A stretch of DNA of 64,000 nucleotides, from positions 208,616-272,615 of the forward strand of contig CAVZJB010000009.1 of NCBI GenBank assembly GCA_963775425.1, in the 5' to 3' direction. Origin of the DNA: an uncultured delta proteobacterium (GTDB lineage Bacteria > Myxococcota > UBA727 > VGSZ01). Shown here in pieces: positions 9,512-12,443 of this stretch; within the stretch, counting starts at the first letter, position 1, and each line of letters begins with the position of its first letter. Below the pieces are notes generated by a model. It was given only the letters and a program-made list of their open reading frames with translations. It was not told where the DNA came from and did no database searches. Made by a program: the position numbers and the translations under genes.

Positions 9512-10390
9512 ATGCGCGCCCCCCTCGTCGCCGTTGCCCTCCTCGCCGCCGCCGCCTGCGGGGGCAGCGCAGAAGTGGTCCACGGGCTCAGCGAGCTCGA
9601 GGCCAACGAGATCATGGTCGTGCTCGAGGCCAAGGGGATCGACTCCGAGAAGCAGGCGGAGCCCGGCCGCGTGACGACGTGGAAGATCGTCGTGTCCGGC
9701 GTGGACGCCAAAGACGCGCGCCGCTACCTGGTGGCCAACCACCTGCCCCGGGCACACAGCCAGGGCCTCCCCGAGGTCTATCCCGCCGGCGGCGGCGGCC
9801 TCATCCCCACCAAGTCCGAGGAGAAGGCCAAGTTCATGATGGCCCTCCAGGGAGAGATCGAAAAGAAGCTCAAGACCCTCCCCGGCATCGTGTCGGCGCA
9901 GGTGACCGTGGTGCAGCCGGAGAAGGACATCGTGCGCGACCTGGACGCGCCGCCGCCCCTGTCCACGGCGTCGGTGGCCATCGTCTACAACGCCGTCGAT
10001 CCCCGCGGCAGCGCCGCCGTCAGCCGGGACGAGGTGAAGGACCTGGTGGCGTCGTCGGTGGAGGATCTGAAGCCGGGCAACGTCACCGTGGTCATGAAGC
10101 CCAACGAGCCGGCGGTGATCGTCAGCGAATACGCCGACTCCGGCACCATCGAGGCCCCCATCACTGCGTCGAGCTGGCTCGGGCTCAAGTTCGCCGACAA
10201 GGCCTCGCGCAACAAGCTCGTCGGCTACTTCGCCGTCGGCGGCATCATCGGTGTCCTCTGCCTCGGCGTCGGCGTCGGCGGCATCGTGCGCTCCATGAGC
10301 CTGCGCCGGGCCAAGGCGCGGGCGGAGGCCGAGCTGACCTCGATGCGCAAGGCCGGTCGCGCCACCCAGACGGGCCTGCAGCAGGGCTGA
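9512..10390 (+). CDS. SctJ/YscJ/FliF-family ring lipoprotein (secretion and cellular translocation family)
   Basis: Internal ATG at 9512 gives MRAPLVAVALLAAAACGG, a lipoprotein signal. LSELEANEIMVVLEAKGIDSEK matches the conserved YscJ/EscJ N-terminus (L.E.EANEI...L...GI). C-terminal TM helix LVGYFAVGGIIGVLCLGVGVGGIV. Confidence 0.6.
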   Translation: MRAPLVAVALLAAAACGGSAEVVHGLSELEANEIMVVLEAKGIDSEKQAEPGRVTTWKIVVSGVDAKDARRYLVANHLPRAHSQGLPEVYPAGGGGLIPTKSEEKAKFMMALQGEIEKKLKTLPGIVSAQVTVVQPEKDIVRDLDAPPPLSTASVAIVYNAVDPRGSAAVSRDEVKDLVASSVEDLKPGNVTVVMKPNEPAVIVSEYADSGTIEAPITASSWLGLKFADKASRNKLVGYFAVGGIIGVLCLGVGVGGIVRSMSLRRAKARAEAELTSMRKAGRATQTGLQQG

Positions 10391-10413
10391 GGCCGAGGCG
10401 CCGCGGAGGGTAG

Positions 10414-11427
10414 GTGCTCGGACGTCTGCTCCATCCGCTGGATCGGCGTCAGCAGACGCTGCTGTTGACCATGCTGAGCTTCGGCGGCTCGCAGGGCAAG
10501 GAGCTGCTGTCGCTGCTGCCCGACGACGAAGCCGGGATGATGGCCGAGAAGGCGCGGAAGCTCGACGAGATCCCGCGCGATCGCCGCATCCCGCTCATGG
10601 TGCGCGAGCTCAAGCAGATGATGACGTTTCGCGCCATCAAGGGGCTCGAGGGCGTCGAGCCGTCCTGGTTGTCGGCGGGGTTCAAGGGCGAGAGCCCGCG
10701 GGTCATCGCCATCGCGCTCATGCACATGCCGTCGTCGATCGCGCGGCAGATCGTGGCGCGGCTGCCGGATCCCGTGCGCGACGCGCTGCCGCCGCGGGAG
10801 GAGCTGCGGCAGGTGCCGCTGTCGGTGGTCAAGCTCGTGCGCGCGCGCTTCGACGCCAAGTTCGCCTCGATGCCGCTCGAGCGCGACCTGGCCGAGCTGC
10901 AGTTCCGCGACCTCGTGCTGCTCACCGCCAAGGAGCTCGTCACGGTGGTGCGCCACGTCGGCGCCGACGAGATCGCCTGTGCGTTCCTCGCCGTCGGCAA
11001 GCGCGCCCTCGCCGAGTTCCTCTCCAAGCTCAGCCCCGAGGACGCCGAGGAGCTCATCGCCGCCGTCAAGCGAACCGACATCAAGGACCAGATGGAGCAG
11101 AAGGCGGCGCGCGGCTTCCTCGGCAAGGTGCTCCAGGGCTTCAACAACACCGACGAGCTGTTCCAGAAGGCGGGCCTCTATCGCCTCGCCCGCGCCATCT
11201 CCATCGAAGACCCCACCTACGTGCGTCAGATTTCGCAGCGCTTCCCGCGCCCGCACGGCCGGCTGCTCGGCGAATACCTCGCGCGCGTGCGCGACGAGGA
11301 GCTCGACGACGGCCAGGTGCGGCGGCTGCGCGATCAGGTGCTCGACGTCCTCGTCAACCTCTCGCGGCGCGGAAAGATCGAGGCGCGCTACGGGCAGCGG
11401 CCCGTGAAGTACGAGGGGCGCTCGTGA
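10414..11427 (+). CDS. FliG-like (flagellar motor switch / C-ring family) protein
   Basis: ESPRVIAIALMHMPSSIARQIVARLPDPVRDAL aligns with the FliG middle-domain EHPQTIALILSYL...AAEIL motif. The C-terminal LAVGKRALAEFLSKLSPEDAEELIAAV...RRLRDQVLDVLVNLSRRGKI resembles the FliG C-domain. About 337 aa, as for FliG. Confidence 0.55.
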   Translation: MLGRLLHPLDRRQQTLLLTMLSFGGSQGKELLSLLPDDEAGMMAEKARKLDEIPRDRRIPLMVRELKQMMTFRAIKGLEGVEPSWLSAGFKGESPRVIAIALMHMPSSIARQIVARLPDPVRDALPPREELRQVPLSVVKLVRARFDAKFASMPLERDLAELQFRDLVLLTAKELVTVVRHVGADEIACAFLAVGKRALAEFLSKLSPEDAEELIAAVKRTDIKDQMEQKAARGFLGKVLQGFNNTDELFQKAGLYRLARAISIEDPTYVRQISQRFPRPHGRLLGEYLARVRDEELDDGQVRRLRDQVLDVLVNLSRRGKIEARYGQRPVKYEGRS

Positions 11428-12443
11428 AGATCGACCTGCGCGTCGATCCCACGGCTCGCCGCATCGCCTTTGCCGCCGCGACGCCGTTCGTGCTCGTCGC
11501 CATCGGCAGCGAGGGCTACCACGTCATCGAGGGTTGGAGCTGGCTCGACGCCCTCTACATGACGGTGACCACGCTCTCCACGGTGGGCTTCGGCGAGGTG
11601 CATCCCCTCTCGGCCGCGGGGCGCATGTTCACCGTCGGTCTCGTGCTCGGCGGCGTCTTCACCATGGCCGCCGCGGTGACGTCGGTGATCAGCTCTCTGG
11701 TTTCAGGCGAGGTGCAAAAGCTCCTCGGGAGGCAGCGCATGGAGCGCAGCTTGGCGTCGATGAAGGACCACGTGATCGTCTGCGGCTACGGGCGCATGGG
11801 ACACATCGTTTGTGACGAGCTGGCGGTCATCAACCAGCCGTTCGTCGCCATCGACCGCGACCACAACCTCATCGAGCACTTCCCCGGCCACATCGGGGTC
11901 GCGCTCGAGGGGGACGCCACGGCCGACGAGGTGCTGCGCAAGGCCGGCATCGACCGCGCCCGCGCCGTCGTCAGCGCGCTGCCGCACGACGCCGACAACC
12001 TCTTCGTCACCATGAGCGCCAAGCTCTTGAACGAGAAGGTCTTCGTCGTCGCGCGCGCCGAAGACCCCGCCAGCGAGGCCAAGCTCACGCGCGCCGGCGC
12101 CAACCGCGTCGTCGCCCCCTACGTCCTCGGCGGCGGCCGCGTGGTGCAGGCGGTGCTCAGGCCGACGGTGCTCGACTTCATCGACCTCGCCACCAAGACG
12201 CACCACATCGAGCTGCAGATGGAGGAGACGTTGGTGCACCACAGCTCCGGCCTCATCGGCAAGAAGCTGAGCGAGTCCATGAACCGCGAGCACCGCATCA
12301 TCATCGTGGCCATCAAGCGCAAGAACGGGAAGATGGAATTCAACCCGGGCGGCGAGACCAAGCTCGACGAGGGCGACACGCTGATCTCCCTCGGGCACCG
12401 CCATGACCTCGATCGCCTCGAGCGGCTCGCGGCCGGATCGTAG
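11424..12443 (+). CDS. RCK/TrkA-gated potassium channel (MthK/Kch-like)
   Basis: Selectivity filter TTLSTVGFGE flanked by two TM helices. RCK/TrkA-N Rossmann HVIVCGYGRMG and a TrkA-C domain. GTG start overlaps the FliG-like stop (GTGA). Confidence 0.85.
   Translation: MKIDLRVDPTARRIAFAAATPFVLVAIGSEGYHVIEGWSWLDALYMTVTTLSTVGFGEVHPLSAAGRMFTVGLVLGGVFTMAAAVTSVISSLVSGEVQKLLGRQRMERSLASMKDHVIVCGYGRMGHIVCDELAVINQPFVAIDRDHNLIEHFPGHIGVALEGDATADEVLRKAGIDRARAVVSALPHDADNLFVTMSAKLLNEKVFVVARAEDPASEAKLTRAGANRVVAPYVLGGGRVVQAVLRPTVLDFIDLATKTHHIELQMEETLVHHSSGLIGKKLSESMNREHRIIIVAIKRKNGKMEFNPGGETKLDEGDTLISLGHRHDLDRLERLAAGS

Follow-up and report, generated by a model that had tools for sequence, protein, structure and literature searches.

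Closest Described Systems

FliG is usually regarded as a flagellum-specific protein. In injectisomes (e.g., those with the YscJKL and PscJKL gene sets), the slot between sctJ and sctL is occupied by the gene of SctK, an adaptor that connects the SctD ring to the SctQ pods; 6UIE is the structure of PscK.

The locus described here lies in a 64-kb stretch of DNA (the window) and shares its Myxococcota origin with the needle-less T3SS* of Myxococcus xanthus and the “Myxo” non-flagellar T3SS (PMC3459982; PMC10433427). In the main study of T3SS evolution (Abby & Rocha 2012), the Myxo systems are basal and lack FliG (PMC3459982); FliO has been reported in the systems of M. xanthus (PMC12248157). In contrast to the Myxo systems of Abby & Rocha, a FliG homolog is an integral member of the clusters analyzed here. 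In the window, its gene is preceded by that of an SctJ-like lipoprotein and followed by that of a K+ channel (Table 1), and the best reading of the first two genes is that they encode conserved components of an inner-membrane complex that derives from a T3SS and is reduced and needle-less.

Table 1. Features of the window, in order of position.
Feature	Position	Strand	Remarks
Multi-pass membrane protein	8426..9367	-	divergent from the sctJ-like gene; membership uncertain
SctJ-like inner-membrane ring lipoprotein	9512..10390	+	292 aa
FliG-family protein, putative cytoplasmic adaptor	10414..11427	+	337 aa; takes the SctK position in T3SS clusters
RCK-gated two-TM K+ channel	11424..12443	+	339 aa; GTGA overlap with the fliG-like gene
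Zn-ribbon (CxxC...CxxC) protein with C-terminal TM helix	21269..21961	+	translationally coupled to SctL-like 1; membership uncertain
SctL/FliH-like protein 1	21958..22515	+	185 aa; PF02108 FliH, E 1e-18
SctL/FliH-like protein 2, divergent	22515..23663	+	382 aa

The SctJ-like and FliG-like Proteins

The TGA stop of the sctJ-like gene is followed by a 23-nt spacer carrying GGAGGG and by the GTG start of the fliG-like gene at 10414, the TGA stop of which overlaps the GTG start of the channel gene as GTGA at 11424. The spacing and the overlap, both asserted in the earlier note, were read directly in the sequence, and the public gene calls on the same contig give identical products of 292, 337 and 339 aa. 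A promoter and terminator scan of positions 9200–12700 yielded nothing above chance.

The translation of the sctJ-like gene displays a signal peptide and a lipobox Cys (LLAAAAC) at the N-terminus, and a TM helix followed by a cytoplasmic tail of ~30 aa at the C-terminus. Its YscJ/FliF ring-building domains are recognized by Pfam (PF01514 YscJ_FliF, E 1.8e-20), so the lipoprotein with a YscJ signature and a C-terminal TM helix proposed in the earlier note was recovered. The best NCBIfam model is that of SctJ (TIGR02544; E 7e-36, 123.8 bits, under the equivalog cutoff of 161.95), against 29.7 bits for the FliF model, and the best PDB matches are PrgK, EscJ, and MxiJ. Judged by these matches, the product is a SctJ-type ring lipoprotein. 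Within the clade, the tail keeps the motif L-K-x-x-L-A-K-A-E-A-E-x-x-A-L-K/R-K-A-R.

In the FliG-like protein, both domains predicted by the earlier note, FliG_M (27.9 bits, cutoff 25) and FliG_C (29.8 bits, cutoff 23.3), exceed the Pfam gathering thresholds. FliG_N scores 18.4 bits, below the Pfam cutoff, and the NCBIfam equivalog TIGR00207 reaches 18.5 against a cutoff of 226.7. The AlphaFold model comprises three all-helical domains, N, M, and C, in this order, and its top structural matches are FliG chains. A generic ARM/HEAT protein is ruled out, since the top structural and profile matches are all FliG. Sequence and predicted fold together identify the product as a true FliG homolog with N, M, and C domains, belonging to a distinct family.

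The EHPQR motif of the FliM-binding surface in the M domain reads ESPR in this protein (H replaced by S, Q by R). Residues E93 and P95, which align to the E and P in EHPQ, vary little or not at all, and the invariant R128 falls within one position of the EHPQR Arg. The MotA-contacting charges of the torque helix are absent when the profile is aligned with FliG_C of T. maritima (25 bits, i-E 6e-5), an alignment of moderate confidence in which E. coli R281, D288, D289, and R297 correspond to E, A, A, and non-basic residues.

The family is sizable, at about 470 clusters at 50% identity, and its profile did not reach canonical FliG at E<=1e-3 among 1.84 billion proteins; homolog searches with broader alignments (A2, A3) returned proteins of uncultured MAGs only. 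The profile of the window clade lies further from canonical FliG (E 1.6e-6) than those of the clades with full clusters (E 1.7e-21).

Gene Order in Relatives

Adjacency of the sctJ-like and fliG-like genes was found in ~20 loci of uncultured Myxococcota, at a FliG-like identity of 28–77%. With these loci at hand, the SctJ/FliF-like and FliG-like assignments withstood the two checks on which the earlier note had staked them, HMM searches and conservation of gene order: the HMMs support them, the fold is that of FliG, and the pair is conserved. The three-gene order also proposed there holds for this pair, but the channel is part of it in the four closest genomes only.

In distant members of the family, the fliG-like gene is located between sctJ and sctL, in the full clusters L030 and L035 and on the P0122 contig, or directly before sctL in L031, L033, and L034, the first and last of which are also full clusters. 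The order in L035 is sctI/F-like, J, fliG-like, L, N, O, P, Q, fliO, R, S, T, U, V, and the components of L030 pass the NCBIfam cutoffs for SctN, SctQ, SctR, and SctU. Smaller clusters of five genes (sctJ, fliG-like, fliH, ATPase, sctO) are present in L024–L028; L029 has the same order so far as visible, with the locus ending at the start of the ATPase gene. In L020, an FHA/YscD_cpl-SctN-SctO operon lies 4.4 kb from the pair, and FHA/Yop-YscD_cpl genes occur near the pair in L020, L031, and L034. Overall, the usual partners of the fliG-like gene are those for SctL, SctN, and SctO, joined in the full clusters by SctQ and the export gate.

Gene order equates the position of the fliG-like gene in the full clusters, from sctJ to sctL, with the SctK slot of injectisomes. 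At the sequence level, no match to the Pfam models YscK, OrgA_MxiK, or HrpB4 was detected in the FliG-like protein, which, in comparison with SctK, is longer by ~150 residues and retains a recognizable FliG signature in its M and C domains. In other respects, the full clusters of the family match the published descriptions of the Myxo systems (SctJ, L, N, Q, R, S, T, U, FHA/SctD-like proteins, LcrH-like TPR chaperones, and FliO); as in those descriptions, no secretin is seen in them.

The partnership with SctJ is not universal, because in the clade of L002, L011, and L013 a Zn-ribbon membrane protein, not SctJ, is encoded upstream of the fliG-like gene. This 411-aa protein was considered as a diverged SctJ and rejected, having no YscJ_FliF match.

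T3SS-like Genes Elsewhere in the Window

Apart from the pair, the tblastn matches to T3SS components in the window are SctL-like only. SctL/FliH-like protein 1 is 35% identical to SctL of the complete T3SS cluster L030, and its ATG start shares the sequence ATGA with the stop codon of the gene before it. SctL/FliH-like protein 2 consists of 212 FliH-like N-terminal residues and an acidic, probably disordered C-terminal region; it has no Pfam match, and hhalign aligns it to FliH/SctL over 206 columns (probability 98.2%, E 5.6e-14). The loci L002, L013, and L023 carry homologs of it, located ~3 kb upstream of the fliG-like gene.

The earlier statement that the window contains no other T3SS or flagellar genes hence needs amendment for the two SctL/FliH-like genes at 21958–23663 and stands for the ATPase and the export gate. 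Genes for the ATPase, SctQ/C-ring, SctRSTUV, and SctD were not found in the window by tblastn or by Pfam on large ORFs (no FHIPEP), nor were those for FliF, FliM/FliN, MotAB, and rod/hook proteins. The window does not hold a complete non-flagellar T3SS, i.e., the SctRSTUV gate, SctN, and SctQ with SctJ (TXSS core: SctC, J, N, Q, R, S, T, U, V). Compared with the T3SS* of M. xanthus, its version is fragmented, with the ATPase and gate locally absent, and compared with the SctJ-SctK-SctL order of injectisomes, its sctL-like genes are displaced by 10 kb.

The Adjacent K+ Channel

The channel predicted in the earlier note is confirmed by its domains, all above cutoff: Ion_trans_2 (E 1.3e-17, 63.9 bits), TrkA_N (E 6e-32, 110.7 bits), and TrkA_C (E 5e-13, 49.1 bits), along with the TVGFGE K+ filter in the translation. 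The two-TM pore, the filter, and the TrkA_N and TrkA_C gating ring are shared with RCK K+ channels of the MthK/Kch type, and only the overlap with the fliG-like gene is unusual.

A channel gene after the fliG-like gene was found only in the window and in L006–L008 (FliG-like identity of 75% or more), with the 4-nt overlap maintained in all four genomes. None is present downstream of the fliG-like gene in nine deeper relatives (L004, L009, L010, L014, and L016–L020), and it is missing from every full or five-gene T3SS cluster seen. The kept overlap is compatible with some functional link within this subclade, where the channel would be a recent arrival co-translated with the FliG-like protein. 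Most likely, it is an ordinary RCK channel without a conserved role in the complex, and its link to the pair, the source of the exotic look of the locus, is probably incidental.

Possible Explanations and Proposed Organization

Probably, the pair encodes two structural components of an apparatus derived from a non-flagellar (needle-less) T3SS of the Myxococcota type, and the channel is a recent neighbor with no conserved role in it. To assign the pair of the window to a working T3SS-like machine is to extrapolate from the relatives, because the ATPase, SctQ, SctRSTUV, and SctD are lacking there. In the lineage of the window, the ancestral T3SS cluster has been broken up: sctJ and the fliG-like gene have remained neighbors, and the two sctL/fliH-like genes are located 10 kb downstream. 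The lipid anchor and the C-terminal TM helix would hold the SctJ-like lipoprotein at the inner membrane, where it is expected to assemble into a periplasmic ring. Its cytoplasmic tail, which is helical and conserved, may bind the FliG-like protein at the N-domain, in analogy to the recruitment of FliG-N by the C-terminus of FliF, and the M and C domains would then constitute a cytoplasmic adaptor layer. Such a layer could serve as a docking site for FHA-type SctD-like or SctQ-like partners as well as for the ATPase complex of SctL, SctN, and SctO, and would not act as a torque-generating rotor.

The earlier note favored a ring/switch module tied to ion flux, i.e., a single machine of the ring lipoprotein, the FliG-like protein, and the RCK channel, in which the FliG-like ring would gate K+ flux or be driven by it, much as the FliG-fold N-domain of MgtE regulates an ion channel. 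Since the channel is adjacent in only four closely related genomes and at least nine deeper relatives are without it, such a machine is poorly supported; its absence from the full and five-gene clusters and its ordinary domain content also speak against it, and we regard it as quite unlikely. A related scheme supposes that the export gate has been lost altogether, both in the lineage of the window and in the five-gene clusters, leaving a stand-alone assembly of ring, FliG adaptor, and rotary-type ATPase with a non-secretory role, which recruited the RCK channel as a co-translated partner in the subclade of the window; this, too, seems unlikely. Better supported than this gate-less reading is the suggestion that SctK is descended from FliG and that a non-flagellar T3SS lineage which branched early, with a bona fide FliG retained in the SctK slot, is a living intermediate.

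The fragmented cluster, lacking the ATPase and export gate in the window, and the greater profile distance of the window clade from canonical FliG would also suit the neutral decay of a pair left without function after the loss of a T3SS or flagellum. The remnant envisaged by the earlier note is borne out as far as the origin of the pair, a T3SS cluster, is concerned; the pair is not decaying, because it is strongly conserved: its ORFs are intact in all loci, with no frameshifts or stops seen; the FliG-like protein keeps 67 invariant columns and an identity of 52–85% among many MAGs; and the adjacency, RBS, and spacing are retained among the relatives. Between L008 and the window, the FliG-like protein is 77% identical and a methyltransferase neighbor 79%, i.e., it is conserved on par with housekeeping neighbors. 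The crude Nei–Gojobori dN/dS of 0.25–0.94, below 1 in every comparison, carries little weight, dS being unreliable at a GC3 of ~0.95. Neutral decay is considered very unlikely.

The likeness to the flagellar FliF–FliG pair concerns the gene order (ring protein, then FliG), the three-domain FliG fold with E and P of EHPQR kept, and a cytoplasmic tail of the ring protein available for FliG-N. The order in L024–L028, which mirrors fliF-fliG-fliH-fliI-fliJ, and the FliO and FliM-domain genes within the full clusters might suggest that the pair is left over from a true fliF-fliG operon of a flagellum, with the organism or its recent ancestor flagellated. This is hardly credible: by its scores and PDB matches, the ring protein belongs to the short SctJ lipoproteins and is not a 550-aa FliF; the cluster components pass the SctN, SctQ, SctR, and SctU cutoffs; and the stator-contacting charges of FliG are lost. 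Although SctJ and SctQ-type FliM/N genes are present in the relatives' loci seen, FliF, MotAB, and rod/hook genes occur in none of them.

The evolutionary interest of the preferred reading, a T3SS-derived apparatus, lies in the retention of FliG by a non-flagellar T3SS lineage, as a distinct family at the SctK position that persists in close pairing with SctJ where the cluster is reduced or scattered. The family offers a sequence-level bridge from the flagellar rotor protein to the injectisome adaptor and flags a candidate missing component of the predation-linked Myxococcus T3SS*. It also delimits reduced sets of SctJ, FliG, SctL, SctN, and SctO without a nearby export gate.

Neighboring Genes of Uncertain Membership

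The Zn-ribbon protein encoded upstream of SctL/FliH-like protein 1 has no significant Pfam or NCBIfam match; its gene is syntenic with a FliH-like gene in L014 and with a TPR-PBP gene in L010. The multi-pass membrane protein likewise matches no Pfam or NCBIfam model, and its gene occupies the same position in L006–L010, L018, and L021, at 50–71% identity.

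A FliG Homologue Next to an SctJ-Type Lipoprotein

Three co-directional genes span positions 9512-12443 of the window (G+C of ~71%), encoding an SctJ-like lipoprotein (ORF 1), a FliG-like protein (ORF 2) and an RCK K+ channel (ORF 3). The TGA of ORF 1 is separated from the GTG of ORF 2 by 23 nt harboring GGAGGG, the TGA of ORF 2 overlaps the GTG of ORF 3 as GTGA, and the same three products come out of independent gene calling in the public record of this contig, so the layout proposed in the earlier note is borne out.

The N-terminus of ORF 1, MRAPLVAVALLAAAAC, comprises a signal peptide and a lipobox. 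The YscJ/FliF-type assignment, suggested earlier from the sequence, is upheld by PF01514 (YscJ_FliF, E 1.8e-20) and by the best NCBIfam model, SctJ (TIGR02544, E 7e-36, under the equivalog cutoff). A C-terminal TM helix precedes a basic, helical tail of ~30 residues with the conserved consensus L-K-x-x-L-A-K-A-E-A-E-x-x-A-L-K/R-K-A-R.

The FliG assignment of ORF 2 likewise holds: the protein scores above the Pfam gathering thresholds with both FliG_M and FliG_C, and its AlphaFold2 model (18 homologues, mean pLDDT 82) retrieved FliG chains as the top 13 Foldseek matches in the PDB, all with full-length alignments and probability 1.00. Profiles of distant family members matched a solved FliG at E 1.7e-21 vs 1.6e-6 for the window-clade profile. 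The EHPQR motif keeps its E and P (ESPR), and the residues aligned with the MotA-contacting charges of the torque helix are E, A, A, non-basic (moderate alignment confidence). The family profile recovered just 473 of 1.84 billion representative proteins at E<=1e-3. Since no canonical-FliG-level score occurs among the 150 matches listed of these 473, the family appears, judging by profile scores, to be separate from ordinary flagellar FliG. ORF 2 is a real FliG homologue but probably not a flagellar rotor. C-terminal extensions of 150-430 residues without a Pfam match occur in the family members P0179, P0248, P0230 and P0258 (700-760 aa) and in that of locus L030.

Features of the window and of related loci (L002-L030)
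Locus	Position	Strand	Feature	Remarks
Window	6387-6526		Tight tandem repeat array	Period 13, 10.8 copies
Window	6530-8215	-	FG-GAP ORF	
Window	7906-8099		Tight tandem repeat array	Period 8, 24.5 copies
Window	8426-9367	-	Multi-pass membrane protein	Divergent from sctJ-like gene; no Pfam/NCBIfam family
Window	9512-10390	+	ORF 1, SctJ-like lipoprotein	292 aa; YscJ_FliF domain, lipobox
Window	10414-11427	+	ORF 2, FliG-like	337 aa; FliG_M + FliG_C
Window	11424-12443	+	ORF 3, RCK K+ channel	339 aa; Ion_trans_2 + TrkA_N + TrkA_C, TVGFGE filter
Window	12444-13355	-	DNA methyltransferase-like	Converges on channel gene; first-position G+C lower, 0.55
Window	21269-21961		Zn-ribbon/TM gene	Stop overlaps start of SctL/FliH-like gene 1 as ATGA
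Window	21958-22515		SctL/FliH-like gene 1	PF02108 E 1e-18
Window	22515-23663		382-aa gene abutting SctL/FliH-like gene 1	Second, divergent SctL/FliH-like domain
Window	29976-33203	+	Major Vault Protein (MVP) domains	1075 aa; MVP_shoulder E 2e-15, Vault_3 E 4e-8
Window	48289-54717	-	2142-aa ORF	Then further genes to 58077
Window	56389-58077	-	fvmX7 "FtsH ternary system" domain protein	E 1.6e-13
L002	8711-9946		Zn_ribbon_TFIIB membrane protein	411 aa; also in L011, L013
L017	11129-12349		Two EutN/CcmL pentamer genes + class II aldolase	Directly downstream of FliG-like gene
L026	10769-12610		ATPase	Extended N-terminus
L030	10001-11563		FliG-like with C-terminal extension	520 aa

Position of the Family in T3SS Clusters

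Scanning a single genome for each species yielded 24 loci. All of them come from uncultured bins, and almost all bear the label Myxococcota, Myxococcales or Deltaproteobacteria. In ~20 of the 24 (tblastn with the three window proteins), a sctJ-like gene lies directly upstream of the FliG-like gene, and this adjacency spans 28-77% FliG-like identity. In the L002, L011 and L013 clade, a Zn-ribbon membrane protein gene stands in place of SctJ, and no SctJ gene was found within 10 kb of the FliG-like gene; the FliG-like proteins of this clade share about 63% identity with that of the window and carry a ~25-residue insert.

In distant family members, the FliG-like gene resides within complete T3SS clusters. 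Thus, L035 harbors, in order, genes for a TPR chaperone, sigma factor, SctI/F-like protein, SctJ, FliG-like protein, SctL, SctN, SctO, SctP (Flg_hook), SctQ, FliO, SctR, SctS, SctT, SctU and SctV. Similar clusters are present in L030, L031 and L034 and on the P0122 contig, P0122 being the nearest outgroup of the window clade (38% identity); the L030 ATPase, SctQ, SctR and SctU exceed NCBIfam equivalog cutoffs for non-flagellar proteins. In injectisomes, the slot between sctJ and sctL belongs to SctK. Because of its sctJ-FliG-like-sctL position, the family fills this slot, in a T3SS lineage also keeping FliO. Descriptions of myxobacterial T3SSs agree with such a lineage (PMC12248157; PMC10433427). 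Abby & Rocha described Myxo systems as lacking FliG (PMC3459982), and the literature searched yielded no mention of a FliG homologue in Myxo T3SSs. A 2025 preprint on a chlamydial SctK candidate noted structural similarity of FliG, YscK, OrgA_MxiK and HrpB4.

The earlier note held that the window lacks other T3SS genes, which is contradicted by two SctL/FliH-like genes. The first is 35% identical to L030 SctL; in the second, hhalign assigns the initial ~210 residues to the SctL/FliH-like family (probability 98.2%, E 5.6e-14). Synteny of the Zn-ribbon/SctL-like block extends to L010 and L014, and the 382-aa protein has homologues encoded close to the FliG-like gene in L002, L013 and L023. The claimed absence of an ATPase and export gate stands: ATPase (SctN), SctO, SctQ, SctR/S/T/U and SctD-like proteins had no match in the window at E<0.01, nor was FHIPEP/SctV present among its large ORFs. 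In L020, a distance of 4.4 kb separates the sctJ-like/FliG-like pair from an operon that encodes SctN, SctO and an FHA/Yop-YscD_cpl/TPR protein. The T3SS-derived system of the window clade is scattered, not simply absent.

Downstream of the pair, L024-L028 have fliH/sctL, the T3SS ATPase and sctO/fliJ (the same order in L029, where the contig stops at the ATPase gene start). The L024-L028 ATPase carries an extra HrpE/FliH-like N-terminal extension (~170 residues, e.g., in L026), and a separate gene for a FliH-like protein lies ahead of it, paralleling the two SctL/FliH paralogues of the window. By analogy with the EG stalk of V-type ATPases, such paired FliH-like parts suggest a heterodimeric stator stalk.

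The more interesting result goes beyond the ion-flux framing of the earlier note: a FliG family occupies the SctK slot in non-flagellar T3SSs of Myxococcota and persists where these are reduced or scattered, as in the window.

Putative Mechanism and Alternatives

Starting from the established identities, the sctJ-like/FliG-like adjacency and the family context, the lipoprotein would form an inner-membrane ring, its conserved cytoplasmic tail possibly binding the FliG-like N-domain as FliF-C binds FliG-N. The M and C domains may then form the adaptor layer to which FHA/SctD-like and SctQ-like partners and the SctL-SctN-SctO complex attach. Rotation seems disfavored, since the charges that contact MotA are lost in the aligned sequences. 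Three observations speak against a flagellar remnant: the ring protein is of SctJ type, the cluster components are of Sct type, and rod, hook and stator genes are absent from the loci examined. Neutral decay of the pair is contradicted by its intact, highly conserved ORFs.

A K+-coupled machine of ring lipoprotein, FliG-like protein and channel, the ring/switch module tied to ion flux of the earlier proposal, is a weak alternative: of the observations, only the gene overlap is compatible with it. The three-gene order is retained in relatives as to the sctJ-like/FliG-like pair but not the channel, which directly follows the FliG-like gene in L006-L008 only (75-77% identity, 4-nt ATGA or GTGA overlap also kept), so both its adjacency and the overlap are shallowly conserved. 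It is absent downstream of the FliG-like gene in L004, L009, L010, L014 and L016-L020; in L009 and L010, a convergent methyltransferase gene directly follows. Most simply, the channel is a recent insertion between these two genes.

Other Features

The methyltransferase-like gene of the window is syntenic in L006, L008-L010 and L014 (77-80% identity). The L017 genes represent a bacterial microcompartment locus, showing that the downstream neighbour of the FliG-like gene is variable. The membrane protein divergent from ORF 1 occupies the same position in seven related loci (50-71% identity) and is possibly a module partner that has gone unrecognised. MVP-like proteins are uncommon in bacteria. 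The genes at 48289-58077 may constitute a defence or proteolysis system. The period-8 array falls in the upstream portion of the FG-GAP ORF, close to the listed ORF start, and, depending on the frame, translates into KKARRQEG or LLAFLPSC repeats.
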